Assembly: GCA_963727505.1 (NCBI GenBank) | Contig: CAVSGP010000009.1 | Coordinates: 32,001-96,000, forward strand | Origin: an uncultured Trueperaceae bacterium | GTDB lineage: Bacteria; Deinococcota; Deinococci; Deinococcales; Trueperaceae | Reading direction: 5' to 3' | DNA length: 64,000 bases | Part shown: positions 32,210 to 44,608 of the stretch, in pieces | How the letters are laid out: every line of letters begins with the position of its first letter | How positions within the stretch are numbered: position 1 is the stretch's first letter | Notes under the pieces: model-generated | The model's database searches: none | Seen by the model: only the letters and a program-made list of their open reading frames with translations | Told to the model about the DNA's origin: nothing | Made by a program: the position numbers and the translations under genes

Positions 32210-32285
32210 GTGGGCACGACCCCGCGTCCGGCGGACGACGCCTGACGGCATGGGGTGGTCGGTGCGGCGCCACGCCACGACAGAG

Positions 32286-32325
32286 CACGATCCCGGCGAC
32301 CGCAGTTCCGGTCGCCGGGATCGTG
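32286..32325 (-). terminator. Long perfect hairpin just downstream of citrate synthase
   Basis: CACGATCCCGGCGACCG / CGGTCGCCGGGATCGTG 17-bp stem about 20 nt after the gltA stop; U-tail weak. Confidence 0.6.
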
Positions 32326-32344
32326 GCGTTGTGGTGCGCTGGGC

Positions 32345-33652
32345 TCAGTCGAACGACGACGCCCGACCGACCTCGACGTGCCGTTCGCCTTCGCCGACGT
32401 AGAGCTGGCGAGGACGAGAGATGCGCTGCTCGGAGTCCAGCAGGCCCTCCTGCCACTGAGCCAGCCAGCCGGGCATGCGGCCGATGGCGAACAGGACCGG
32501 GAACATCTCGACGGGGAAGCCCATCGTCTGGTAGATGATTCCCGAGTAGAAGTCGACGTTCGGGTAGAGCTTGTGCGAGACGAAGTACTCGTCCTCGAGC
32601 GCGATGCGCTCCAGCTCCAGGGCGACGTCGAGCAGCGGGTTGCGCCCCGTCACTTCGAAGACCTCGTCAGCGACGCTCTTGATGATCTTGGCGCGCGGGT
32701 CGAAGTTCTTGTAGACGCGGTGTCCGAAACCCATCAGGCGGAATTCGCCCTGTTTGACGCGCTCGATGTAGGCGGGGACGTTCTCGACCGATCCGATGTC
32801 GTTCAGCATCCGCAGGACCTTCTCGTTGGCCCCGCCGTGGAGCGGCCCGTAGAGCGCGGCCGAGGCCGCTGCGGCTGCCGAGTACGGGTCGGCCTGCGAG
32901 CTTCCCACCACGCGCATGGTGCTGGCCGAGCAGTTCTGCTCATGGTCGGCGTGGAGGATGAAGAGCACGTCGAGCGCGTGCTCGAACACGGGATTGGGCC
33001 GATACTTCAGCTCGGTGGCCTTCCACATCATGTTGAGGAAGTTGCCGGGGTAGCTCAGGTCGTTGTCGGGGTAGGCGATCGGCAGGCCCGTGGCGTGCCG
33101 GTAGGCGAAGGCCGCCAGCGTCGGCATCTTGGCGATCAGCCGGATGATCTGCGTCCGACGTTGCTCCGCGTCGAAGAGGTCCTTGGCGTCCGGATAGAAC
33201 GTCGAGAGCGCGCCGAGGGTGCTGACCAGCATGCCCATCGGGTGGGCGTCGTGGTGGAAGCCGTCGATGAACGTCTTGATGTTCTCGTGGATGAAGGTGT
33301 GATGGGTGATGTCGTGTGCCCAGCCCTCGAGCTCGCCCTTGTCAGGGAGCTCGCCGTAGAGCAGCAGGTGCGCGACCTCCAGGAAGGAGCTCTCCACCGC
33401 GAGTTCCTCGATGGGGTAGCCGCGGTAGCGCAGGATGCCCTTCTCGCCGTCGATGTAGGTGATCGCGCTGCGGCAACTGGCCGTGTTCAGGAAGGCAGGA
33501 TCGTAGGACAGCAATCCGAAGTCGTCGTCCGAGGTCTTGATCTGCCGCAACGCGGTCGCCGGGATAGCGCCCTCGTTGATCGGGATCTCGTAGGTGCGGT
33601 CCGTCCGCGTGTCGGTGACCTTCAGGAGGCCGTCCTTCTTGGATCCGTCCAT
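32345..33652 (-). CDS. gltA: Citrate synthase
   Basis: ILRYRGYPI, ILHADHEQN, GPLHGGANE, LMGFGHRVYK and PNVDFYSG. Confidence 0.96.
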   Translation of the reverse strand: MDGSKKDGLLKVTDTRTDRTYEIPINEGAIPATALRQIKTSDDDFGLLSYDPAFLNTASCRSAITYIDGEKGILRYRGYPIEELAVESSFLEVAHLLLYGELPDKGELEGWAHDITHHTFIHENIKTFIDGFHHDAHPMGMLVSTLGALSTFYPDAKDLFDAEQRRTQIIRLIAKMPTLAAFAYRHATGLPIAYPDNDLSYPGNFLNMMWKATELKYRPNPVFEHALDVLFILHADHEQNCSASTMRVVGSSQADPYSAAAAASAALYGPLHGGANEKVLRMLNDIGSVENVPAYIERVKQGEFRLMGFGHRVYKNFDPRAKIIKSVADEVFEVTGRNPLLDVALELERIALEDEYFVSHKLYPNVDFYSGIIYQTMGFPVEMFPVLFAIGRMPGWLAQWQEGLLDSEQRISRPRQLYVGEGERHVEVGRASSFD

Positions 33653-34225
33653 GCTTCCTCGCCCATCCTTTCTGCCCGAGGCGCGTCCATCGCCCTCCTC
33701 GTGCCCGTTCGGCCCGTCCGGCGGGGCGCTCGTGGTTGGTTGGCGCGGGGCCGCGGTCGAACGCCGATCGGTCCGCCCGTTCCGGCCCCGGCCTTCGCGG
33801 GCGGAGGTTCCAGGGAAGCTACACCTGGGATCCGTCGCGCGGGGGCCGTCCATCCGGTCACGCCGGGCTGATCGGTGCCACTACCCGTCCAGGGTATGTC
33901 CGTGCTCGAAAACGGTCCCAGGGGCAAATATCCCGATGGGGCCGATTCCGTGCAGGACAGCGTCATGGTGCAGTGGCGCGGAGCTGGGACACGGGGCGTT
34001 GCCCATCCACCGCCCGGGGGTAGGGGTCAAGAGCTTTCGTTCTTTCTCCGCTTGGCATCGGAAGGGATGGCGCGTGCGAGGCTGCCGCGTGGCTTCGCGA
34101 GTGGCTCCGGCCCGACCGGTGCTGTCGCCTCGGGGACGCCCGGGAGCGTTGCGCCGCTCTACCGTCGTGCCAGGTTCTACAGCGTTCGCGAGTGCAGGCG
34201 CCTGCGATGGAAGGGGCGGATTGCG

Positions 34226-35665
34226 ATGGAGAAGAGGAAGACCAAGGCCGTTGCGCGGTCCTTGAGCGCAGCCATCGTGTTCATCCTGCTGGTCGCAGGG
34301 ACCGCTTCCTGCCAGCGGAGCGCGCTGCAGGGGCAGGACTGGACCCGCTTCGGATGGGACGCCGCGCGCACGAACGATGGGCCGACCGCTGCCGGGATCA
34401 CGGCGGGCGACCTGGGCGCGTTGAAGCGGCAGCAGGTGCAGCTCGGGGGGACCGTCGACGGCTCGCCCATCTACCTGCACGGCGTGCAGATCGAGGGCGC
34501 TGTGCACGACGCCTTCTTCGTGACGACCATCTACGGTGAGACGCTGGCCATCGATGCGAACCGTGGGACGGTCCTGTGGCGGTTCACCCCCCCGGGATAT
34601 GCGGGCTGGGCCGGCTCCGACCGCATCACGACCGCGACGCCGGTGGCGGACCCGGACCGTCGGTACCTCTATGCCGCATCGCCCGATGGCGTCGTGCGCA
34701 AACTCGCGGTGGCGGACGGTAGCGTGCAATGGGGCACCTCCGTGACGGAGCTTCCTACCCGTGAGAAGATCGCGTCCTCGCTCAACCTCTCGCACGGTCG
34801 GGTGATCGTGACCACGGGCGGCTACATCGGCGACGCGCCCCCCTACCAGGGGCACGTCGCCGTTCTGGACAGCGGAGGCGGCCACATCGAGAACGTCTGG
34901 AACGCGCTGTGTAGCGACCGCTCCGGAATGTTCGCGCCGTCGTCGTGCTCGCAGAGCGGCGCGGCCATCTGGGGTCGGGCCGGAGCGGTCGTCGATCCCT
35001 CGAGCGGAGACCTCTTCATCGCGACGGGGAACGCACTTTGGGACGGTCATACGTTCTGGGGTGACGCCGCGCTCGAGCTCTCGCCAGACGCGGGGACGCT
35101 GCTGGGCAACTTCACGCCCAGGAACACCGATCAGCTCAACGCGCGTGACCTGGACCTCGGCTCCACTGCGCCGGTGCTGCTGGGAGATGGTCTGGTGGCG
35201 CAGGGAGGCAAGGACGGCAGCATCCGATTGCTCGACTGGAGCGCGATGCGTGGGCAGGTGCCGCACCAGGGTGGAGAGCTGCAGACGGTGTCCACTCCGT
35301 CGGGTGCCGAACTCTTCACGGCTCCGGCGGTGTGGCGCCACGGGGGCGAGACGTGGTTGATCGCGGCCGACAACGGTGGAACGGAAGCGTGGCGGTTGTC
35401 GGAGGGGCGTCTGCAAGCTGTGTGGCACAACGCCCATGCCGGTACCAGCCCGGTGCTGGCCGGCGGGCTCCTCTACGTCTACGATCCTGCGGGCGGGCTT
35501 CGCGTGGTTCAGCCCGACACCGGCCGGCTCCTTGCCGAGCTGGCGAGCGGCCCCGGTCACTGGAACAGCCCGATCGCGATCGACGGGCGCATCGCGCTCC
35601 CCGAGGGCAACGCCAATCAGCATCGAACGAGCGGCGTCCTGGATATCTGGCGCGTTGCTCGATGA
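34226..35665 (+). CDS. Exported PQQ-binding-like beta-propeller protein, possible lipoprotein
   Basis: Signal peptide with TASC, Trp-docking repeats and DLDLGS..P...GGKDG motif. Confidence 0.72.
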   Translation: MEKRKTKAVARSLSAAIVFILLVAGTASCQRSALQGQDWTRFGWDAARTNDGPTAAGITAGDLGALKRQQVQLGGTVDGSPIYLHGVQIEGAVHDAFFVTTIYGETLAIDANRGTVLWRFTPPGYAGWAGSDRITTATPVADPDRRYLYAASPDGVVRKLAVADGSVQWGTSVTELPTREKIASSLNLSHGRVIVTTGGYIGDAPPYQGHVAVLDSGGGHIENVWNALCSDRSGMFAPSSCSQSGAAIWGRAGAVVDPSSGDLFIATGNALWDGHTFWGDAALELSPDAGTLLGNFTPRNTDQLNARDLDLGSTAPVLLGDGLVAQGGKDGSIRLLDWSAMRGQVPHQGGELQTVSTPSGAELFTAPAVWRHGGETWLIAADNGGTEAWRLSEGRLQAVWHNAHAGTSPVLAGGLLYVYDPAGGLRVVQPDTGRLLAELASGPGHWNSPIAIDGRIALPEGNANQHRTSGVLDIWRVAR

Positions 35666-35749
35666 TGCGCGGGGACATGTGTCCGTAGCGGGGTCTCGCG
35701 GCTTCCCGCTAGCATTCGGACAGCGCCCGAGCCAGATGTGACCCGAAGA

Positions 35750-35857
35750 CCCTCCGAGGGGCCGCCCTGGCCGAGGGGAGAGCCCTCCGGGGCCGCCCGG
35801 GTAACCGGACGACCTGCCGAGTGAGCAAAGGGACCGCGATGCGGTCCCTCGTTTCAT
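35750..35857 (+). ncRNA. Candidate Moco/Wco (molybdenum/tungsten cofactor) riboswitch with overlapping terminator-like hairpin
   Basis: CCCU-CCGAG start; P2 GGGC/GCCC; UCCGGG linker; P4 CCGG-GUAA-CCGG (GNRA loop); CCUGC-N7-GCAAAGGG end. This parallels the Moco motif CUCCGAG...GNRA...CCUCC-N-GGAAAGG as I recall it. Lies directly upstream of a molybdoenzyme. Confidence 0.62.
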
Positions 35858-35937
35858 GGTGCGGCGGGGGCGGCTTCGCGCCGCATGGGGCGGTGCGTGG
35901 GTTCCGCCGCACGGTTTCGCCGGGGACGGGAGGCCCT

Positions 35938-38685
35938 ATGGCCCAGAGCCGATGGAATCGCGGTCCCAGCCGACGCACGGTCCTGAAGGGGATCGTGCTG
36001 GGAACAGGGAGCCTGGTGTTGGGGAGGTTCCGATGGCTCCCGGAGGCGCGCGCCCAGGAGAGCTTGCAGCCGACCTGGGACCCCGCCGATTACGACTACA
36101 CGGCCTGGGAGGACCTTTACCGCAAGCGATGGACGTTCGGAGCGGCTGGGCGTAGTACGCACTCGGTCAACTGCACCGGCAGCTGCAGCTGGAAGGTCCT
36201 GGTGAAGAACGGCGTGGTGTGGCGCGACGAGCAGGCTGCCGACTACCCCGCTATCGGGCCCGATCTGCCCGACTACAACCCGCGCGGCTGCCAGAAGGGG
36301 GCCTGCGCGTCGGACTACCAGTACGGGCGGCAACGCGTGAAGTACCCTCTGAAGCGCGTCGGGGAGCGCGGTGAGGGGCGGTGGCAGCGGCTCAGTTGGG
36401 ACCAGGCGCTCACCGAGATCGCGGACCGCACGCTCGACATCATCCAGCGACACGGGCCCGAGTATCTGCACGCCTTCACGCCGATCCCGGCCATGAGCCC
36501 GGTGTCCTATGCCTCCGGGTCGCGACTGATGAACCTCCTGGGCGGCGTGTCTTTCACCTTCTACGACTGGTACTGCGACCTTCCACCCGGGGAGCCGATC
36601 ACCTGGGGCGTTCAGACGGACAGCGCCGAGTCCGCCGATTGGACGAACAGCCGCTACATCATCGCCTGGGGCTCGAACGTCAACGCCACCCGCATCCCGG
36701 ACGCGCAGATGCTCCAGAAGGCGCGGCTCCGCGGAGGGGCCAAGGTCGTGATGATCGGTACCGAGTACAACCCGACGAGCGTTCATGCCGATCAGTTCGT
36801 GCCGGTACGGCCGGGCAGCGACCTCGCGGTGGCGCTCGCGATGGACCATGTGATCCTGAGCGAGGGGCTCTACGACGTCGCCTACGTCAAGGAACAGACC
36901 GACCTCCCGTTCCTGGTGCGTGAGGACGACGGCCGCTTCCTGCGGGCGGTCGACCTCGATCCGGGCATGGCGAACGCCGACGGCGACGATGGTGGCGGCT
37001 TCTTCCTGTGGGACAGCAAGCGCGGTCTCACGGCCGTACCGAAGGACCGGCTCGCCCTCGGTGATCTCGATCCCGTGCTCGATGCCCACCAGGAAGTGCA
37101 GACGGCCGCGGGGACGGTGCGCGTCACGACGGTCTTCACGTTGTTGCAGCGCGAGCTGGCGGACAAGACGCCGGCGTGGGCGCAGCGGCAGAGCGGGTTG
37201 AACGCCGAGACCATCGCTACGCTCGCCCGCGAGTTCGCAACCACGCGACCCGCGATGATCATCCACGGGAACGGCGTCAACCAGTGGTATCACAACGACC
37301 TCGCGAACCGGGCGATGATCCTGATGGCGGCGCTGACCGGCAACGTGGGCAAGCCCGGGGGCGGGTTCAACCACTACGTGGGGCAGGAGAAGATCTGGCC
37401 GGTGGCGGGTTGGAAGGCGCTGGCTTACCCCGGCCCGCAGCGATTCCAGAACACGACCCTCTGGACCTACTGGCACAGCGAGATGCAGGATGTCGATCCA
37501 CTCTGGCCCGACCTCAAGCCTTACCTGGAGACGGCCGTCGAGAAGGGCTGGATGCCGCTGTGGCCCAACGGGCTCGAGGGCGAGCCCAAGGCGCTGTTCA
37601 CATGGCGGGCCAACTGGTTGAACCAGGCGAAGGGCAACTTGCGTGTTCTGGACAAGCTGATCCCCAAGCTAGAGCTCATCGTGGCGCTCGACTTCCGCAT
37701 GTCCTCCACCGACCTCTACGCCGATTACGTGCTGCCGGCCGCCACCTGGGCCGAGAAGTTCGACCTCAGCTCTACGGACCTCACGTCCTTCCTGATCCCG
37801 TTCACGCCGGTCGTCGCCCCCTTCGCGGAGGCCAAGACCGACTGGCAGGCCTTCCGAGCGCTCGCCGAGACGATCGAACGGCGTGCCAAGGAGCGCGGTG
37901 TTACCGCCTACGACGACATCATCGACGGCGCCACGATTCACCGCGACCTGGCCACGCTTCACGACCAGTTCACCGACGGCGGCAAGCTGCGGCTCGACAA
38001 GGACGCCGCGCAGTCCATCCTGGACGGTTCCGAAGAGACCAGGGGGTACCGTTTCGACGATCTCGTCACCCGCCCCCGCCGTTTCAAGGCTGCGAGCGAG
38101 CACTGGACGAGCGACCTGGAAGAGGGGAAGGCCTACGCGCCGTTCCAGCGCTACGTGAAGGGCAAGCGCCCGTGGCCGACGCTGACCGGACGGCAGCAGT
38201 TCTACATCGACGCTCCCTGGTATCAGGAACTCGGGGTGGCGCTGCCGACCTTCAAACCGCCGCTCGAGCTCAGCAAGCATCCTCTTCGACTCAGCACGCC
38301 CCACTACCGGCACACCATCCATTCGAGCTGGGCGATCGACCTGACGCTCCAGCGCCTGCAGTGGGGCGAGCCGTTCGTGTACCTCAACCCCGACGACGCC
38401 GGGACACGCACCATCGAGGACCATGACTGGGTGAGGGTGTTCAACGACAACGGCTCGACGCGTGTCCGGGCGCGGCTCCATCCCGCTGTGACCCCGGGTC
38501 AGGCGCTGCTCTACCAGGGCTGGGAGATGGTGCAGTTCGAGGGCCGCAGCAACTTCCAGGCGCCGATCTCCATCCACATCAACCCGACCCAGTTGGTGCG
38601 CTACGGCCACCTCCAGTTCAAGCCCAACTACTGGGGTCCGACCGGGGCCAACCGCGACACCCGCGTCGACGTCGAGAAGGCCTGA
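35938..38685 (+). CDS. DMSO reductase type II molybdopterin (alpha) subunit, Tat-exported, periplasmic NarG-like
   Basis: Tat motif SRRTVLK; FS0 motif THSVNCTGSCSW; YNPRGCQKG; TPIPAMS; FYDWYCDLP (Asp Mo ligand); QTDSAESADW; HYVGQEK; 915 aa. Confidence 0.92.
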   Translation: MAQSRWNRGPSRRTVLKGIVLGTGSLVLGRFRWLPEARAQESLQPTWDPADYDYTAWEDLYRKRWTFGAAGRSTHSVNCTGSCSWKVLVKNGVVWRDEQAADYPAIGPDLPDYNPRGCQKGACASDYQYGRQRVKYPLKRVGERGEGRWQRLSWDQALTEIADRTLDIIQRHGPEYLHAFTPIPAMSPVSYASGSRLMNLLGGVSFTFYDWYCDLPPGEPITWGVQTDSAESADWTNSRYIIAWGSNVNATRIPDAQMLQKARLRGGAKVVMIGTEYNPTSVHADQFVPVRPGSDLAVALAMDHVILSEGLYDVAYVKEQTDLPFLVREDDGRFLRAVDLDPGMANADGDDGGGFFLWDSKRGLTAVPKDRLALGDLDPVLDAHQEVQTAAGTVRVTTVFTLLQRELADKTPAWAQRQSGLNAETIATLAREFATTRPAMIIHGNGVNQWYHNDLANRAMILMAALTGNVGKPGGGFNHYVGQEKIWPVAGWKALAYPGPQRFQNTTLWTYWHSEMQDVDPLWPDLKPYLETAVEKGWMPLWPNGLEGEPKALFTWRANWLNQAKGNLRVLDKLIPKLELIVALDFRMSSTDLYADYVLPAATWAEKFDLSSTDLTSFLIPFTPVVAPFAEAKTDWQAFRALAETIERRAKERGVTAYDDIIDGATIHRDLATLHDQFTDGGKLRLDKDAAQSILDGSEETRGYRFDDLVTRPRRFKAASEHWTSDLEEGKAYAPFQRYVKGKRPWPTLTGRQQFYIDAPWYQELGVALPTFKPPLELSKHPLRLSTPHYRHTIHSSWAIDLTLQRLQWGEPFVYLNPDDAGTRTIEDHDWVRVFNDNGSTRVRARLHPAVTPGQALLYQGWEMVQFEGRSNFQAPISIHINPTQLVRYGHLQFKPNYWGPTGANRDTRVDVEKA

Positions 38686-38695
38686 GGAGGAAGGC

Positions 38696-39796
38696 ATGCC
38701 CGTCCCCAAGCTCAACAAGGACGATCTCCTGAAGAGCGAGCATCAGCTCGGGATGGTCCTCGATCTGAACAAGTGCATCGGCTGCCAGACCTGCACGGTG
38801 GCGTGCAAGACGCTGTGGACCCGCGATGCCGGTCAGGAGGCGATGTACTGGATGAACGTGGAGACCCGGCCCGGCGCCGGCTATCCACGGGGCGTCGTGG
38901 CCCCCAACGGTGGGTGGACGCCCGACGGCCGGCAGGGGGTCCGCGGCCGCCTACCCACCGCCGAGGACTACGGCACGACCTACCGTTTCAACGACCAGGA
39001 GGCGCTCTTCGCGCCGGGACAGGCTCGCTTCGCGCCCGACACGGAGCCGCTCTGGGGGGTCAACTGGGACGAGGACAAGGGCGCCGGCGAGTACCCGAAC
39101 ACGTTCCTCTTCTACCTGCCACGGCTATGCAACCACTGCACGCACCCGGCCTGCGTGGAAGCCTGCCCCCGCAATGCGCTGTACAAGCGCAACCGGGACG
39201 GCATCGTGCTGCTCGACCAGGAGCGCTGCCACGGCTACCGGTTCTGCGTGGAGGCTTGCCCCTACAAGAAGATCTACTGGAACCACGTGGCCAAGGTGTC
39301 GCAGAAGTGCATCTTCTGCTACCCGCGGATCGACGAGGGCATCCCTACGGCCTGCAGCACCCAGTGCGTCGGCCAGGTGCGCTTCGTGGGGTTGGTGGAC
39401 GACCCGAAGAGCCCGCTCTACGACCTGATCCACACCTGGAAGGTGGCGCTGCCGTTGCTCCCCGGGCACGGCACCCAGCCGAACGTCTACTACGTGCCGC
39501 CGACGGCGCCCGAGGCCGTCGATGCCGACGGAAGGCCCACCGGCGAACGCCGCATCCCCCTGAGCTACCTCGAGCAACTCTTCGGCGACGGCGTGGGGGC
39601 GGCGCTGGACACGCTCGAGGGCGAGCTCGGCAAGCTGCGTCGCGGCGAGGCTTCCGACTTGATGCGGCTTCTCACCGTGGACCGCTACCAGGATCTGTTC
39701 ACGTTGCCGACCGCTCCGAGCAACGACACCTGGTTCGGCGCCTTCGCCGCGCCGGGCGGCACGCCCACCCGCGCGCCCTCCGAGACGGAGCCTTGA
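38696..39796 (+). CDS. DMSO reductase type II iron-sulfur (beta) subunit, NarH/SerB/EbdB-like
   Basis: DLNKCIGCQTCTVACK, LPRLCNHCTHPACVEACP, CHGYRFCVEACPYKK ([3Fe-4S] site) and KCIFCYPR. Confidence 0.93.
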   Translation: MPVPKLNKDDLLKSEHQLGMVLDLNKCIGCQTCTVACKTLWTRDAGQEAMYWMNVETRPGAGYPRGVVAPNGGWTPDGRQGVRGRLPTAEDYGTTYRFNDQEALFAPGQARFAPDTEPLWGVNWDEDKGAGEYPNTFLFYLPRLCNHCTHPACVEACPRNALYKRNRDGIVLLDQERCHGYRFCVEACPYKKIYWNHVAKVSQKCIFCYPRIDEGIPTACSTQCVGQVRFVGLVDDPKSPLYDLIHTWKVALPLLPGHGTQPNVYYVPPTAPEAVDADGRPTGERRIPLSYLEQLFGDGVGAALDTLEGELGKLRRGEASDLMRLLTVDRYQDLFTLPTAPSNDTWFGAFAAPGGTPTRAPSETEP

Positions 39797-39797
39797 C

Positions 39798-40442
39798 ATG
39801 CAGGCGAATCGTGTGACCGTCGACCGTAAGGCGCTGCTCGACCCGTCGGACGCCGCGTGGAGCGGGGCGCCCGCACAGGTGTTGCAGCTCGTGAGGGCGC
39901 CACTCACGATGCAACCCAGCCCCTGGATGCAGGGCGCATTCCAGGATCTCACCTGGGGCGATCTGGTACGCGCTGAGCTGCGGCTCGTGCACAACGGCGA
40001 GGTCCTCGCGGCGCGGGTGTCGTGGGCCGTCCCCGTGAGCGCAGAGCGATCGCTGGGCGCCAACGAGTTCCCGGACGCCTGCGCCGTGATGTTCCCGTTC
40101 GTTCGGGACGCCTCGATCTTCATGGGGGCAGAGAACGCATGGGTCAACATGTGGCTCTGGCGCGCCGACGGCCACGGGCCCTTCGCGGTGACCGCCGCCG
40201 GCATCGGAACCTCTCAGCGCGTCGACGACGGTGTCCTCGAGGCCGCCGGCGCCTATCGTGACGGCACCTGGGAGGTGGTGTTGACGCGCGCGCTCGACCC
40301 CGGCAACGGCCGCGACCACGTGCCGCTGCGGCCGGGCGCACGTTGGCAAGTGTCGCTGGCCCTGTGGCACGGAGCGCGTGCCGAACGAGCCGGAATCAAG
40401 TCGTTCAGCCCGACGTGGACCGAGCTGGAGATCGCCGGATGA
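39798..40442 (+). CDS. DMSO reductase type II heme b (gamma) subunit, EbdC/SerC-like
   Basis: FPDACAVMFP, FMG..VNMWLWRAD and W.G...ERAGIKS (Met/Lys heme ligand pattern); no TM helix or signal peptide seen. Confidence 0.85.
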   Translation: MQANRVTVDRKALLDPSDAAWSGAPAQVLQLVRAPLTMQPSPWMQGAFQDLTWGDLVRAELRLVHNGEVLAARVSWAVPVSAERSLGANEFPDACAVMFPFVRDASIFMGAENAWVNMWLWRADGHGPFAVTAAGIGTSQRVDDGVLEAAGAYRDGTWEVVLTRALDPGNGRDHVPLRPGARWQVSLALWHGARAERAGIKSFSPTWTELEIAG

Positions 40443-41089
40443 GTCGGGGCGCCCTTCCGGGTCCCCCCGATCCGCGCGCGCTCCTCTACCTCGGGTACGC
40501 GCGCCTGCTGGGATTCCCCGATGCGCCGCTGAGGGACTGCATCCAGAGCGGTGACGTTGCGGTCGAAGTAGCGGCGGTCCACCGGGCCGCCAGACTTGCG
40601 CCCCCCGGGAACGATCTGCTGCGGGACGTGCGGGGCGGGCTCGAGCCCGACTACATCGCCGCGTTCGAGGTCGGCGTTCCGGAGCCGCCCGTGCCGCTCT
40701 ACGAGAGCGCCTACCAGGCCGACGACAAGGCGAGTCGGCTGAGTGTGCTGGAGGACCTCGTTCGCTTCTACGAGTTCTTCGATCTGGACCTGGGCGAAGC
40801 CCCGAGCGAGGCGCCCGACCATCTCACCGTCGAGCTCGAGTTCATGGCGGCGCTGGCGCAGATGGAGGCGTTGGCTGCCGGTGAGGGCGCGGACCGCGCC
40901 CCCTTCCGGCTGGCCCAGCGTGACTTCCTCGATCGCCATTTGCTCGGGTTCCTGCGACGCATCTGCGCGCGCGCCCTACCTGACGGGTTCTACGCCGGGG
41001 CGCTCCACGCCCTGAGGCGCGCCGTCGAACAGGATCGTGCGGCGCTCACGCCCGAGGTCGAGGACGGGGAGGTGCCGGCAGACGCCTGA
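40439..41089 (+). CDS. TorD/DmsD-family maturation chaperone (delta subunit)
   Basis: PLYESAY, RFYEFF, PDHLTVELEFM and QRDFLDRHL; ATGA overlap with gamma. Confidence 0.88.
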   Translation: MSRGALPGPPDPRALLYLGYARLLGFPDAPLRDCIQSGDVAVEVAAVHRAARLAPPGNDLLRDVRGGLEPDYIAAFEVGVPEPPVPLYESAYQADDKASRLSVLEDLVRFYEFFDLDLGEAPSEAPDHLTVELEFMAALAQMEALAAGEGADRAPFRLAQRDFLDRHLLGFLRRICARALPDGFYAGALHALRRAVEQDRAALTPEVEDGEVPADA

Positions 41090-41211: not shown

Positions 41212-41673
41212 TCAGCCGTTCCCCGCCAGGGTAGCCCCCAGCTCGTCATCGGTCGGCGCCGAGCCAGCGGCGGCGTGCTCGACGAGCAGCCGGCTCATGC
41301 GCTCCAGCGCGTCCCGCGTGTGTCGCCAGGTGGCCACGTCCCGGCCGCTGGGGTCGGGCACGCTCACGTGCCGGCGTACGGTCCGCGCAGGGTAGGCGGG
41401 ACAGGCCTCGTTGGCGTCGTCGCAGACGGTGAGTACGAGGTCGAACGCCCAGGGGTCGGGGATCTCGTGAAGGGTCTTGCTGGTGTGGGTGGTGAGGTCG
41501 ATGTCAGCCTCGGCCATGACGGCGATAGCGTCGGGCTTCACGCGCGTGCTCTCGGTGCCCGCGGACCAGACCTCGAGATCGAGGCCGGCGTCCCGGGCGT
41601 GCCTTCGGATCCAGCCCTCCATCATCTGGCTGCGGGCGCTGTTGTGGGTGCAGAGCACGAGCAGGCGCGTCAC
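41212..41673 (-). CDS. arsC: Arsenate reductase, LMW-PTP (thioredoxin-dependent) type
   Basis: [11 protein letters not shown]-loop, [11 protein letters not shown] and DP motif; GTGA overlap with acr3. Confidence 0.9.
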
Positions 41674-42833
41674 TTCGTTCCCTTCCCGTTCCCTCCTGCG
41701 TTCGAAGGCGAGCTCCGTGGCGTGGGCGCGGCGCCGGTGTCTCGTTCGGAGAGGGGAGACGGCGCATCGGTCGTTGCGCGCGGTTCCGGGAACCAGCGTC
41801 GTTGGAGTCGGAACGCGACGTTCACGAGCGCGATCATGACGGGAACCTCGATGAGGGGGCCGATCACGGTGGTGAAGGCTACGGCCGAGCCGATGCCGAA
41901 CACGGCGATGGCGACGGCGATGGCGAGCTCGAAGTTGTTGCTGGCGGCGGTGAAGGCGAGGGTGGTGGTGACCGCGCCGTTGGCGCCGAACCGCCGACCC
42001 ATCCAGAAGCTGAGCAGGAACATGATCACGAAGTAGAGGGCGAGCGGAGCAGCGATGCGAAGCACGTCGAAGGGGATGGTGAGGATGAGGCCGCCCTTGA
42101 GGCTGAACATGACCACGATGGTGAACAGGAGCGCGATCATGGTGATGGGGGCGATCATGGGAACGAAGCGCTCCTCGTACCAGCTGCGTCCCTTGGCGGG
42201 GATGAGCACGACGCGGCTGAGCACGCCCGCCGCGAAGGGCACGCCCAGGTACAGTAGGACGGCGCGTGCCACCTCTCCCATGGGGACGGCGATGATGTGC
42301 GCCTGCAGGCCGAGCCAGGCGGGGAGCAGGGTCGCGAAGAGGTAGGCGTAGGCGCCGTAGAACAGGACCTGGAAGACACTGTTGAGGGCCACCAGGCCGG
42401 CGGCGTACTCGCGGTCGCCGGCGGCGAGGTCGTTCCAGACGATGACCATGGCGATGCAGCGGGCGAGCCCGATGAGGATGAGGCCGACCATGTACTCGGG
42501 TCGGTCGCGGAGGAAGAGCAGGGCCAGCGCGAACATCAGCACGGGCCCCACGATCCAGTTCTGCACCAGCGACAGCGCCAGCACGCGGAGGTTGCCGAAG
42601 ACGGCGGGCAGGCGCTCGTAGCGGACCTTCGCCAGCGGCGGGTACATCATGAGGATGAGCCCGATGGCGATGGGCACGTTGGTGGCGCCCACCTGGACGC
42701 GTTGCAGGGCGCTCTCGATACCGGGAACGAGCGCGCCCAGCGCGATGCCGGCGGCCATGGCCGCGAAGACCCAGAGGGTGAGGAAGCGGTCGCGCGCCGA
42801 GAGCCGCGAGGGGACGGCGTTCCGACGGCTCAT
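41670..42833 (-). CDS. acr3: ACR3 family arsenite efflux transporter
   Basis: [40 protein letters not shown] and GPLIEVPV. Confidence 0.95.
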
Positions 42834-42932
42834 GGACGCGTCCATCGTTCCGGTCTCGGGCGCGCGGCGCAACCGTCGTCGGCTGCCGTGCACCGCTGCG
42901 AGGGGTTCACCGGGCCGGGCGGGTCGTGGCCG

Positions 42933-43169
42933 TCACGGTCGGATCAGGATGCCTTCGAGTTGCTGTGGGGAGGGGACGCGGCCGGCCAGGACGACCTTCT
43001 CGTCGATGACGAGGGCGGGCGTGGAGCTGACGCCGTAGGCGAGGATGTCGGCGTAGTCGGTGACCTTCTCGACGTCCGCCTGGATGCCCCTGGCATCGAG
43101 GACGAGGCGGACGTTGGCTTCGAGGCGCTTGCAGTTGGGGCAACCGGATCCGAGGACTTTGATGGTCAT
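42933..43169 (-). CDS. Small redox-active disulfide protein (thioredoxin-like)
   Basis: IKVLGSGCPNC and TPALVID...GRVP. Confidence 0.88.
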   Translation of the reverse strand: MTIKVLGSGCPNCKRLEANVRLVLDARGIQADVEKVTDYADILAYGVSSTPALVIDEKVVLAGRVPSPQQLEGILIRP

Positions 43170-43217
43170 GCTGTGAGCCTCCTGCTCGTGGGATGGGCGG
43201 CGGCATGCCGCCGAAGG

Positions 43218-44261
43218 TCAGAGGATGGCGTTGAAGAGGAAGCCGGTGGCGAGGATCCCCGTACCTACCACGGCCACGTAGACGGCGATGAGCCGGGGCT
43301 TGAGCACGCGCCGCAGGATGATCATCTCGGGAAGCGACAGAGCGACGACCGCCATCATGAACGCGAGGGTGGTACCCATGGCGAGCCCCTTCGCGTGGAG
43401 CGCTTCGACCAGCGGCAGGATGCCAGCGGCGTTGGAGTACAACGGGATGCCCAGCAGGACTGCCACGGGTACGGCGAGGGGCTGGCCGGGGCCGGCGTAG
43501 TGGAGGAAGAAGCTCTGTGGCACCCAGCCGTGGATGGCGGCGCCCAACCCGATGCCGACCAGCAGGTAGGGCCAGATCTTGGCGAGGATGGTCCTCACCT
43601 CTTCGATGCCCATCTGCACGCGCTCGGGCCAGGTGAGTTGGCGGCTGGGGTCGAGGACCTGCCCCCCGAGGCGGGTCTCGAAGACGAACGGTTCGACCCA
43701 CTTCTCCAGGTGGAGCCGACCCAGGATCATGCCGGCGACGACGGCCAGGATCAGGCCGCTGGCGAGGTAGAGCGCGGCGACGGTCCAACCGAACATGCCG
43801 AAGAGCATGACGAGGGCGATCTCGTTGACCATGGGGCTGGCGATGAGGAAGGACAGCGTCACACCGAGTGGGACGCCGGCGGCGACGAAGCCGATGAAGG
43901 CGGGTACGGCGCTGCACGAGCAGAAGGGCGTCACGACGCCGAGGCCGGCGGCCAGCGCGTTGCCTGCCCCCTCTCGCCGGCCGCCCAGCAGGGCGCGCGT
44001 CCGCTCGACGCTGAAGAAGCTCCGCAGCACGGTCACGGCGAAGATGATCGCGACCAACAGCAGCACGAGCTTCACGCTGTCGAACAGGAAGAAGTGCACG
44101 GCGTCGGCGAGGCGCGTGCCTTCGGACAGGCCGAGGCCGTGGTAGACGAGCCAGTCGAAGACCGGGCCGTTGGCCGCGTAGAGCAGCGACCACGCCAGCG
44201 CGGCTCCGCCGAGAGCGAGCGGGAGCGGCAGCGGCCGGCGGTGCTCCATGCGTGCCCTCAT
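43218..44261 (-). CDS. ArsP/DUF318 family permease
   Basis: TPFCSCSAVP, FLIASPMVNE, GIPLYSN and LSLPEMIIL; ATGA overlap with arsR (alternative start 44249). Confidence 0.9.
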   Translation of the reverse strand: MRARMEHRRPLPLPLALGGAALAWSLLYAANGPVFDWLVYHGLGLSEGTRLADAVHFFLFDSVKLVLLLVAIIFAVTVLRSFFSVERTRALLGGRREGAGNALAAGLGVVTPFCSCSAVPAFIGFVAAGVPLGVTLSFLIASPMVNEIALVMLFGMFGWTVAALYLASGLILAVVAGMILGRLHLEKWVEPFVFETRLGGQVLDPSRQLTWPERVQMGIEEVRTILAKIWPYLLVGIGLGAAIHGWVPQSFFLHYAGPGQPLAVPVAVLLGIPLYSNAAGILPLVEALHAKGLAMGTTLAFMMAVVALSLPEMIILRRVLKPRLIAVYVAVVGTGILATGFLFNAIL

Positions 44262-44608
44262 CCGGATACTCCCTCGCGGGCGCAGGCGTCGGCACAGTCG
44301 GCCATCGTCAGGCCGAAGGCTGCGGGGTCGGGCGGGAGGGAGCCCTGCAGGCGCCGCAGTGCCGCCGGCACCAGGCAGTAGTCGATCCAGCGGCCACGTC
44401 GCGAGCCTTCGATCAGTCCCGCCTCGCGGAGCACCTTGAGGTGGTGCGAGAGCAGGTTGGGCGCGATGTCGATGACCTCCTGGATCTCGCACACGCAGTG
44501 GCTGCCATCGGTGAGGGTGGCGAGGATCCGCAGCCGGGTGGGGTCCCCGAGCGCCTTGAAGCCGAGGGCGAGCCCCTCTGCTAGTTCAAGGGATGTTGAA
44601 TCAATCAT
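44258..44608 (-). CDS. arsR: ArsR/SmtB family repressor
   Basis: FKALGDPTRLRIL, CVCEI, LSHHLKVLREAGL; extra C-terminal CADAC. Confidence 0.92.
   Translation of the reverse strand: MIDSTSLELAEGLALGFKALGDPTRLRILATLTDGSHCVCEIQEVIDIAPNLLSHHLKVLREAGLIEGSRRGRWIDYCLVPAALRRLQGSLPPDPAAFGLTMADCADACAREGVSG

Follow-up and report, generated by a model that had tools for sequence, protein, structure and literature searches.

RNAs of the riboswitch class for the molybdenum cofactor (Moco) occur in types that contain the helix P3 and types that lack it. The latter have been associated with the tungsten cofactor (Tuco, or Wco), and P3-containing members are tied to Moco genes only (PMC2408646). In Escherichia coli, the moaA leader holds the ribosome-binding site (RBS) within the closing helix P1, an OFF platform, and OFF is the only logic shown by experiment for the family in the available text of the same study (PMC2408646). 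Some Moco RNAs precede intrinsic terminators, and an association with enzymes that use Moco has been described (PMC2408646). For the moaA leader of E. coli, which had long been regarded as a translational switch, a re-analysis of RNA-seq data reported modulation of termination (PMC12121620). Here we describe a Moco-class leader in a 64,000-nucleotide (nt) stretch from an uncultured Trueperaceae bacterium (contig CAVSGP010000009.1; the whole stretch is called the window below). The leader lies ahead of an operon for a molybdopterin enzyme, contains P3, and has its closing helix in competition with a terminator-like hairpin. We propose that aptamer and hairpin together probably act as a transcriptional ON switch for this operon.

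The window RNA resembles the leader of E. coli moaABCDE in having P1 to P5, P3 included, in its junction letters (CCGAG, GCC-G, CC-GGGG, CCU and AAAGG), in the GNRA loop on P4 and in its place in the 5' leader of a Moco-related operon (PMC2408646). The two differ in platform and in target. In the window the terminator-like hairpin has the P1 3' strand as its 5' arm, with a predicted ON outcome, whereas E. coli moaA has its RBS in P1 and is an OFF switch; the window operon uses the cofactor, whereas the E. coli operon makes it. Set against the E. coli type and the Rfam consensus, the window has GUAA in place of GAAA, two conserved C-A mismatches in P4, a 31-nt insert in P2 and a score below the Rfam cut-off. 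The P3-less Tuco/Wco subclass shares the core, P1, P2, P4 and P5 with the window and has terminator platforms in some members (PMC2408646; Eubacterium limosum, PMC11725836), but it lacks the P3 that the window contains.

Thermus-type riboswitches of the same order share the aptamer, the UGC/GCA form of P5 and GYAA tetraloops. Their platform is different: a conserved AAAGGAGG of J5/1-P1 is the Shine-Dalgarno (SD) sequence, 5-8 nt before the start codon. All 21 printed aptamers of this Thermus-like family have GCAAAGGAGG and then a start codon within a few bases, which places the RBS in J5/1-P1 as in E. coli moaA and gives a translational OFF logic. Each of the three downstream genes checked codes for a periplasmic binding protein, ModA-like (SBP_bac_11) in two cases. 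One order seems, from these comparisons, to use one aptamer with OFF wiring for uptake and ON wiring for cofactor users. The same ON logic is known from the Bacillus subtilis pbuE (ydhL) adenine riboswitch, in which the 3' strand of the closing helix is reportedly the 5' arm of a terminator and ligand is said to prevent termination; its aptamer and ligand are unrelated to those considered here.

The one Moco riboswitch that has been tested, that of E. coli moaA, turns cofactor synthesis off. An ON-type Moco riboswitch is nowhere described in the open full-text literature searched, in the available text of PMC2408646 with the accessible part of its supplement, or in the available parts of PMC1950547, PMC11672702, PMC11725836, PMC9481103, PMC9495176, PMC12121620 and PMC10265488. 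The available text of PMC2408646 has no antiterminator and no 'switch on' wording, with 'turn on' occurring only within a reference title, and the accessible part of its supplement names only T. thermophilus HB27 and HB8 from Deinococcus-Thermus. The available parts of PMC1950547 are silent on Moco platforms.

A Moco-class aptamer containing P3

The leader occupies the intergenic region between the stop codon of a pyrroloquinoline quinone (PQQ)-like beta-propeller gene (35665) and the ATG at 35938 of a molybdopterin oxidoreductase gene with a twin-arginine translocation (Tat) signal. The Rfam model of the Moco RNA motif (RF01055) matches 35714-35850 on the + strand over its full length (model positions 1-135) at 31.3 bits, with E = 1.1e-5 in a 401-nt search (35600-36000) and 2.2e-5 in the whole 3.26-Mb assembly. 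This match is the sole one in the assembly, and it ends 88 nt upstream of the start of an alpha-subunit gene of family TIGR03479. A first-pass annotation, made from the letters of the window, had proposed a Moco-family aptamer ahead of a molybdenum enzyme operon, and that placement holds. The covariance-model (CM) match is significant, although its score lies under the gathering score of 36 bits. The elements of the aptamer are listed here; A1 and A3 denote alignments of eight Trueperaceae aptamers and of 30 related leaders, respectively.

35714 to 35850, + strand: extent of the RF01055 match by CM alignment, with the aptamer proper, P1 to P1, at 35723-35837
35723 to 35728, + strand: P1 5' strand GCGCCC, pairing with 35830-32 and 35835-37, with A35833 and C35834 bulged (CM alignment)
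35727 to 35731, + strand: junction CCGAG (J1/2 into P2), invariant in A1 and with no strain variant listed (CM alignment)
35731 to 35771, + strand: P2, with base GCCAG/CUGGC at 35731-35/35767-71 and a 31-nt variable insert at 35736-66 (CM alignment)
35773 to 35787, + strand: P3 hairpin GAGGG-GAGAG-CCCUC, strands 35773-77/35783-87 (CM alignment, in both registers discussed below)
35790 to 35815, + strand: P4, with GNRA-type tetraloop GUAA at 35801-04 and two C-A mismatches (CM alignment)
35816 to 35829, + strand: P5, GC...GC at 35816-17/35825-26, and the conserved AAA junction at 35827-29 (CM alignment)

All conserved junction letters are kept, at 35727-31 (CCGAG), 35770-73 (GCC-G), 35787-92 (CC-GGG), 35813-15 (CCU) and 35827-31 (AAAGG), and these letters are invariant or nearly so in A1 and A3. 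Aptamers of the same family that score above the Rfam cut-off (41.9, 41.3, 36.9, 36.6, 36.2, 49.5, 46.3 and 42.0 bits) align with the window column for column. All Trueperaceae matches share CCCGAGC followed by P2, then GCCGAG(G/A)GG...CCUCC, which is P3, and GGGGCC...GG(C/U)AAC...GACCUGCC...GCAAAGGGAC. By its letters and pairings, the window element is a genuine Moco-class aptamer, a divergent lineage form of a known riboswitch class. The minimum free energy (MFE) of the leader is uninformative (z-score -0.62 for a fold of 35705-35945, at 72% GC).

Exchanges among 30 sequences support the individual helices. The base of P2 is 94.7% paired, with both-side changes in five of five pairs; P3 has 98.0% of its cells paired and both-side changes in three of five pairs; P5 is 100% paired. 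P1, whose 3' strand is GGG..CGC (35830-32, 35835-37), has GCG/CGC in the window versus GCA/UGC and AGUUCC/GGAACU in paralogues. Column 189/208 of P4 is unpaired in 29 of the 30 sequences, and this trait of the lineage brings the Rfam score down. The P4 loop GUAA fits GNRA, and receptor-like letters in a P2 bulge were not seen at 35731-71 in a by-eye reading; the receptor goes with GAAA-type members, and the four GCAA-loop members are reported to lack it (PMC2408646). For the aptamer as a whole, 87.9% of cells are paired, against 31-50% in slid controls, and 15 of 29 pairs have both-side changes. None of 500 shuffles reaches four of the five measures used, and 14 of 500 reach the remaining one, further pair types. 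These comparisons establish both the homology of the aptamer and its P3.

RF01055 gives matches in 7 of 41 relatives at E <= 0.01 and in 24 of 151 genomes of the order at E <= 0.001. A lineage covariance model (R1), built from the eight aptamers of A1 and used to search 128 family genomes, returned 39 matches in seven of them: one each in G000 and G004, two in G008, nine in G006, ten in G019, nine in G049 and seven in G058. We examined 36 of the 39, leaving out two G006 copies that are near-identical to G008 copies and one copy cut by a contig end. The Rfam model places eight of the 36 at or above its cut-off and four, the window included, below it at E <= 0.01; it gives nothing at that level for the other 24. 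The Rfam cut-off under-calls this clearly homologous lineage, and with 24 of 36 members missed even at E <= 0.01, Rfam-based surveys of molybdenum regulation miss such regulons.

One strand shared by P1 and a terminator-like hairpin

The 3' strand of P1 also belongs to a second structure, which is followed by a short tail and further leader:

35829 to 35849, + strand: terminator-like hairpin AGGGACCGC-GAU-GCGGUCCCU, 9 bp with loop GAU, then CGUUUC (read from sequence)
35850 to 35858, + strand: tail CGUUUCAUG, a weak U tract (read from sequence)
35859 to 35912, + strand: second predicted leader hairpin, then GGUUUCG (MFE fold only)

Seven of the nine hairpin pairs are G-C, the loop has 3 nt, and the hairpin alone folds at -16.6 kcal/mol. 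Its 5' arm (35829-37) takes in all of the P1 3' strand together with the final A of the conserved AAA. The first-pass annotation had located this hairpin and called it mutually exclusive with P1, and both points are confirmed by the sequence and the CM alignment: the closing helix and the terminator compete for one strand, with no antiterminator between them. In constrained folding of 35714-35862, the aptamer conformer has -48.7 kcal/mol and the terminator conformers -62.6 to -68.0 kcal/mol, so the hairpin should be the default state. About 4-12 nt lie between completion of P1 and emergence of the 3' arm of the hairpin. In the window tail CGUUUCAU, 4 of the 8 nt that follow the stem are U, and the 11-nt span used for scoring below contains 5 U. 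The tails of the G004 (CGUUUCAUGG) and G019 (CGUUGUUUGG) orthologues are of the same kind, and most paralogues have clearer U runs. The stretch 35859-35912 is variable among strains, with many substitutions and a 5-nt deletion at 35871, and is therefore not counted as part of the switch.

The overlap recurs across related leaders. With the aptamer core anchored on GC(A/G)AAGG, a script required at least 8 pairs, a start at most 5 nt from the (A/G)AAGG core and at least 4 U in the last 3 stem bases and the next 8. By this measure 28 of 36 leaders have an overlapping terminator, with tails of 5-8 U in the 11 nt (5 in the window), and L053 and L071, added by eye, bring the count to 30. Among the 13 family aptamers found by the Rfam model, which is blind to platform (L040, L047, L045, L052, L060, L046, L059, L067, L051, L050, L043, the window and L018), 11 have the overlap, the exceptions being L067 and L018.

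Both helices covary. Over the 30 rows of A3, the ten outer pairs of the terminator helix are 96.0% paired, against 34-62% in slid controls. Exchanges of the types G-C/A-U/G-U, A-U/G-C and U-A/C-G/U-G are seen, both sides change in 17 cells, and none of 500 shuffles reaches the observed paired cells, changed cells or covariation score. The corresponding value for an eight-row alignment is 96.3% paired (10 of 500). Two sets of positions change across the P1 5' strand, the shared strand and the terminator 3' strand. In the first, C-G-C of the window is U-A-U in L044, L045, L046, L051, L055 and L059; in the second, G-C-G is A-U-A in L047, L052, L049, L053, L062 and L072. A shared strand that changes with both partners is, on comparative grounds, the pattern expected of two mutually exclusive helices under selection. 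The first-pass annotation had suggested that related leaders be aligned for covariation, and the overlap design does recur with compensatory changes in 30 of the 36. Together these comparisons establish the strand competition and the conservation and covariation of both helices.

A search of 61 family genomes for orthologues of the operon returned only that of G019 (77% identity). The orthologous operons of G004 and G019 keep the aptamer and the GGGACCGC...GCGGUCCCUCGUU hairpin; on the G019 leader Rfam gives nothing at E <= 1, and R1 gives the aptamer at 64-66 bits. The orthologue at a locus in a Deinococcales metagenome-assembled genome (MAG) is cut at the 5' end of the gene and hence has no leader. 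No aptamer was found with RF01055 or R1 at the orthologue of a 'Deltaproteobacteria' MAG (72% identity, L017), so the RNA follows the lineage and not the operon.

Variation among strains, taken from DNA contigs of four sediment runs of one study, clusters in the flanks and in the P2 insert. The insert is polymorphic, with a 13-nt insertion after 35731 (one contig of X7), a 1-nt deletion at 35750 (in X3, X7 and X8, one contig per run) and the substitutions C35752T, T35753C, G35758A and G35759C. It measures 43 nt in the G004 orthologue, which has the 13-nt insertion and 1-nt deletion seen in the strain contigs. The stretch 35721-35735, with the P1 5' strand and CCGAG, has no strain variant listed, and neither has the hairpin at 35829-49. 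Only two fall within 35769-35861, namely T35802C, which turns GUAA into GCAA, and C35806T, which turns a C-G pair of P4 into U-G.

Direction of control and alternative explanations

One can envision the switch as follows. When ligand is absent, the much more stable hairpin would form behind the polymerase and most transcripts would end near 35850-58. When cofactor is bound, the junction and P1 would be held and the hairpin could not nucleate. Readthrough would then reach the Tat-exported operon of the type II dimethyl sulfoxide (DMSO)-reductase family, with its alpha, beta and gamma subunits and chaperone. Such cofactor-gated readthrough would mean that apoenzyme is made only when cofactor is available. 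Evidence for a response to Moco is, to our knowledge, genetic and comes from E. coli, and we know of no case in which direct binding was shown. In the window, we infer Moco as the ligand from P3 and the gene context, following the associations in PMC2408646. We likewise infer that transcription terminates at the hairpin, from which the ON direction would follow under kinetic control. An ON switch had already been put forward by the first-pass annotation; the idea gains support from the strand overlap, from its recurrence in 30 of 36 related leaders and from the three-way covariation, the direction of control being predicted from sequence comparison.

Several observations weigh against this proposal. 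A gathering-mode Rfam search of the 64-kb window returned zero matches because the score is sub-threshold (31.3 versus 36 bits), which is not a refutation. Promoter and terminator scans returned 0 and 0, and the hairpin was unlisted; a simple terminator scan misses it because only four of the eight bases past the stem are T, and the U tract is weak by the same count. Six of the 36 leaders have other platforms (the second copy in L047, L067, L073, L075, L076 and L077). R1 included the terminator columns and the 30 rows of A3 were picked for a visible hairpin, which biases the paired percentages and the figure of 30 in 36 upward; the rows are paralogues and orthologues from seven related genomes and are not independent. 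For the terminator helix, 282 of 500 shuffles reach the observed number of pairs with both-side change and 487 of 500 reach that of further pair types.

Alternative explanations of the element itself fare poorly. The first-pass annotation had read it as a P3-less tungsten-cofactor aptamer, wired ON, with P1 formed by CCCU 35750-53 and AGGG 35829-32; we regard this as very improbable. The letters that it quoted are all in place (CCCU 35750-53, CCGAG 35754-58, GUAA 35801-04, UGC/GCA 35815-17/35825-27 and the hairpin at 35829-49), the pairings exist in the sequence, and its P4 with the GUAA tetraloop and its P5 agree with the model alignment. However, its CCCU and CCGAG both fall inside the variable P2 insert, where the model uses 35723-28 and 35727-31, and its P2 with an inner hairpin is a misread register, that hairpin being P3 (35773-87). 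If the search is limited to 35745-35860, with the upstream CCGAG withheld, the model does fall back on CCGAG 35754-58, but at 22.1 versus 31.3 bits, with P2 as a single pair and P3 still there. P3-less RF01055 members also occur in related genomes, at L018:1501-1622 (G047, same family; 77.1 bits) and L034:1501-1610 (G101; 42.5 bits). These align with the P3 columns deleted, whereas P3 of the window is present in both registers and covaries in the 30 homologues; L018, further, has a GAAA tetraloop, lacks an overlapping terminator and lies upstream of a gene for a 4Fe-4S dicluster protein. The P1 of the P3-less reading is one base short in strain contigs as well as in the G004 orthologue, G35758A hits its CCGAG in a variant contig, and the G019 orthologue has no equivalent of CCCU/CCGAG 35750-58. 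The RNA is thus not P3-less, and the inference of tungsten sensing falls with it. The type II DMSO-reductase family is a molybdenum bis(pyranopterin guanine dinucleotide) (Mo-bisPGD) family, and the genome, 97% complete, has no match to the aldehyde ferredoxin oxidoreductase (AOR)-type tungstoenzyme domain AFOR_N. The tie of P3-containing RNAs to Moco genes only, as far as the available text of PMC2408646 goes, points the same way, and the tungsten idea can be dropped for the window. The UGC/GCA form of P5, which had been read as covariation, is a genuine exchange, with G-C where the Rfam consensus has C-G, but it is common to all Deinococcales members seen, including those of 45-77 bits. A decayed or chance resemblance without function is just as improbable. 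The Rfam score is sub-threshold, and GC-rich DNA folds well anyway, as the z-score of -0.62 reflects; against this, E is 2.2e-5 per genome, no invariant core position is lost, and strains as well as the G004 and G019 orthologues retain the element between flanks that vary.

Other alternatives accept the aptamer and differ in how it would act. The hairpin may not be a ligand-controlled terminator but a constitutive attenuator or a stabilising stem, with control exerted at another level, for instance by Rho, by RNA stability or by translation via the downstream leader. The weak U tract in the window and the roughly 90 nt of further structured leader between hairpin and start codon are in keeping with this, and the re-analysis of moaA shows that sequence can mislead about a platform (PMC12121620). 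We nonetheless consider it unlikely, since in 30 leaders the P1 3' strand and the AAA junction exactly make up the 5' arm of the hairpin, tails of 5-8 U follow in the 28 script-scored leaders, the shared strand covaries with both partners, and the downstream leader is poorly conserved among strains. An OFF switch, in which cofactor would promote termination or block translation as at E. coli moaA, would have the sole logic shown by experiment for the family in its favor (PMC2408646), and Thermus-like relatives do hold the SD inside P1. At this locus, however, 90 nt separate the SD (35928-33) from the aptamer, P1 is in direct competition with the terminator for one strand, and there is no antiterminator that P1 formation would release; we judge an OFF switch here to be highly unlikely.

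Part of the P2 insert, 35757-35765 (AGGGGCCGC), is a near copy of the terminator 5' arm AGGGACCGC (35829-35837) and could pair with the terminator 3' arm. As a candidate extra antiterminator it was dropped; the G019 orthologue does not keep it, and a variant strain contig has it in altered form. The near copy probably arose as a side effect of local duplication, and the register chosen in the first-pass annotation was seeded by it.

Related leaders, the operon and its surroundings

Four genomes, G019, G049, G006 and G058 (loci L044-L077), carry 7-10 aptamers each, and the window's genome carries one. Nearly all aptamers of these four lie before paralogous Tat-signal genes resembling those of DMSO and trimethylamine N-oxide (TMAO) reductases (PF00384, often with PF18364). 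Across the 36 leaders, 32 stand ahead of PF00384 genes that have twin-arginine signals, three run off contigs, and one (G006) faces tatA-tatC. Some Trueperaceae may run a cofactor-gated feed-forward regulon of up to ten Tat-exported molybdoenzyme operons per genome (and apparently tatA-tatC in one), each behind a divergent Moco aptamer and most wired ON. A palindrome present in all 30 terminator-type leaders, described below, would suggest an AND gate of a protein regulator and cofactor supply. We hold this broader proposal with as much doubt as confidence. If true, these leaders would make up the first ON class of Moco riboswitches to be characterised, in a sub-family mostly missed by the Rfam model (8 of 36 at cut-off). 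An ON version ahead of cofactor users would show the same aptamer coupling apoenzyme production and export to cofactor supply, and it would give a simple reporter of intracellular Moco with a sign opposite to that of moaA.

The tat-facing aptamer lies at L047:1205-1306 on the - strand (G006:C32:32771-32872), scores 63 bits with R1 and has no overlapping terminator. It faces tatA (PF02416), whose start is 424 nt downstream, and tatC (PF00902), and is divergent from an enzyme-linked aptamer about 195 nt off.

Two elements stand upstream of the aptamer in the window:

35672 to 35684, + strand: imperfect palindrome GGGAC-N4-GTCC, recurring in related leaders
35710 to 35715, + strand: -10-like hexamer TAGCAT, a putative promoter element (weak, by sequence reading)

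The form (G/A)GGAC-N4-(G)TC(C/T)C is found about 52-58 nt 5' of the CCGAG junction in all 30 terminator-type leaders printed (beyond the window, at L014, L040, L043-L066 and L069-L072). It looks like a candidate operator or activator site shared by the whole set of molybdenum enzyme operons. In many paralogous leaders a TAnnnT occupies the corresponding position, about 25 nt past the palindrome, and leaders of the Thermus type have TTGACA-N18-TAGCAT. A sigma-70 scan found no promoter at TAGCAT 35710-15; from the position of the hexamer, the transcript would start near 35720.

The operon downstream comprises the following features:

35928 to 35940, + strand: SD GGGAGG (35928-33) and ATG start (35938) of the alpha subunit (read from sequence)
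35938 to 38685, + strand: molybdopterin (alpha) subunit of the type II DMSO-reductase family (TIGR03479, 1039.6 bits, cut-off 984.75; PF00384, PF01568)
38696 to 39796, + strand: iron-sulfur (beta) subunit (TIGR03478, 483.6 bits, cut-off 480.7; Fer4_11)
39798 to 40442, + strand: heme b (gamma) subunit, EB_dh family (PF09459; TIGR03477 at 123.1 bits, under the cut-off of 169.85)
40343 to 41089, + strand: NarJ/TorD-like chaperone (delta) (PF02613; TIGR03482 at 119.6 bits, under the cut-off of 152.3, residues 46-237)

The alpha-subunit translation opens with MAQSRWNRGPSRRTVLKG and has a twin-arginine signal. Its nearest relatives among solved chains are 5e7o/4ydd (about 820 bits), which we take to be the perchlorate reductase PcrA, followed by NarG (478 bits) and EbdA (411 bits). 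The label 'NarG-like', used in the first-pass annotation, is a fair one. The nearest named relative of the alpha subunit, at 97% identity, comes from an uncultured Trueperaceae MAG. The delta open-reading frame (ORF) as listed overlaps the end of gamma, so translation of delta probably begins further downstream. Five PF00384 genes are present in the genome, and it encodes MoaC and MoeA elsewhere, with no aptamer upstream of either.

Just past the operon, a convergent gene at 41670-42893 (- strand) encodes a transporter of the SBF family (PF01758). This family also covers ACR3-type arsenite carriers, and the neighbouring transporter could hint at an oxyanion substrate for the enzyme. Two long ORFs, 32255-33871 and 42297-44381 (538 and 694 amino acids), belong to no Pfam or NCBIfam family, and both may be spurious, given the 70% GC content of the DNA.

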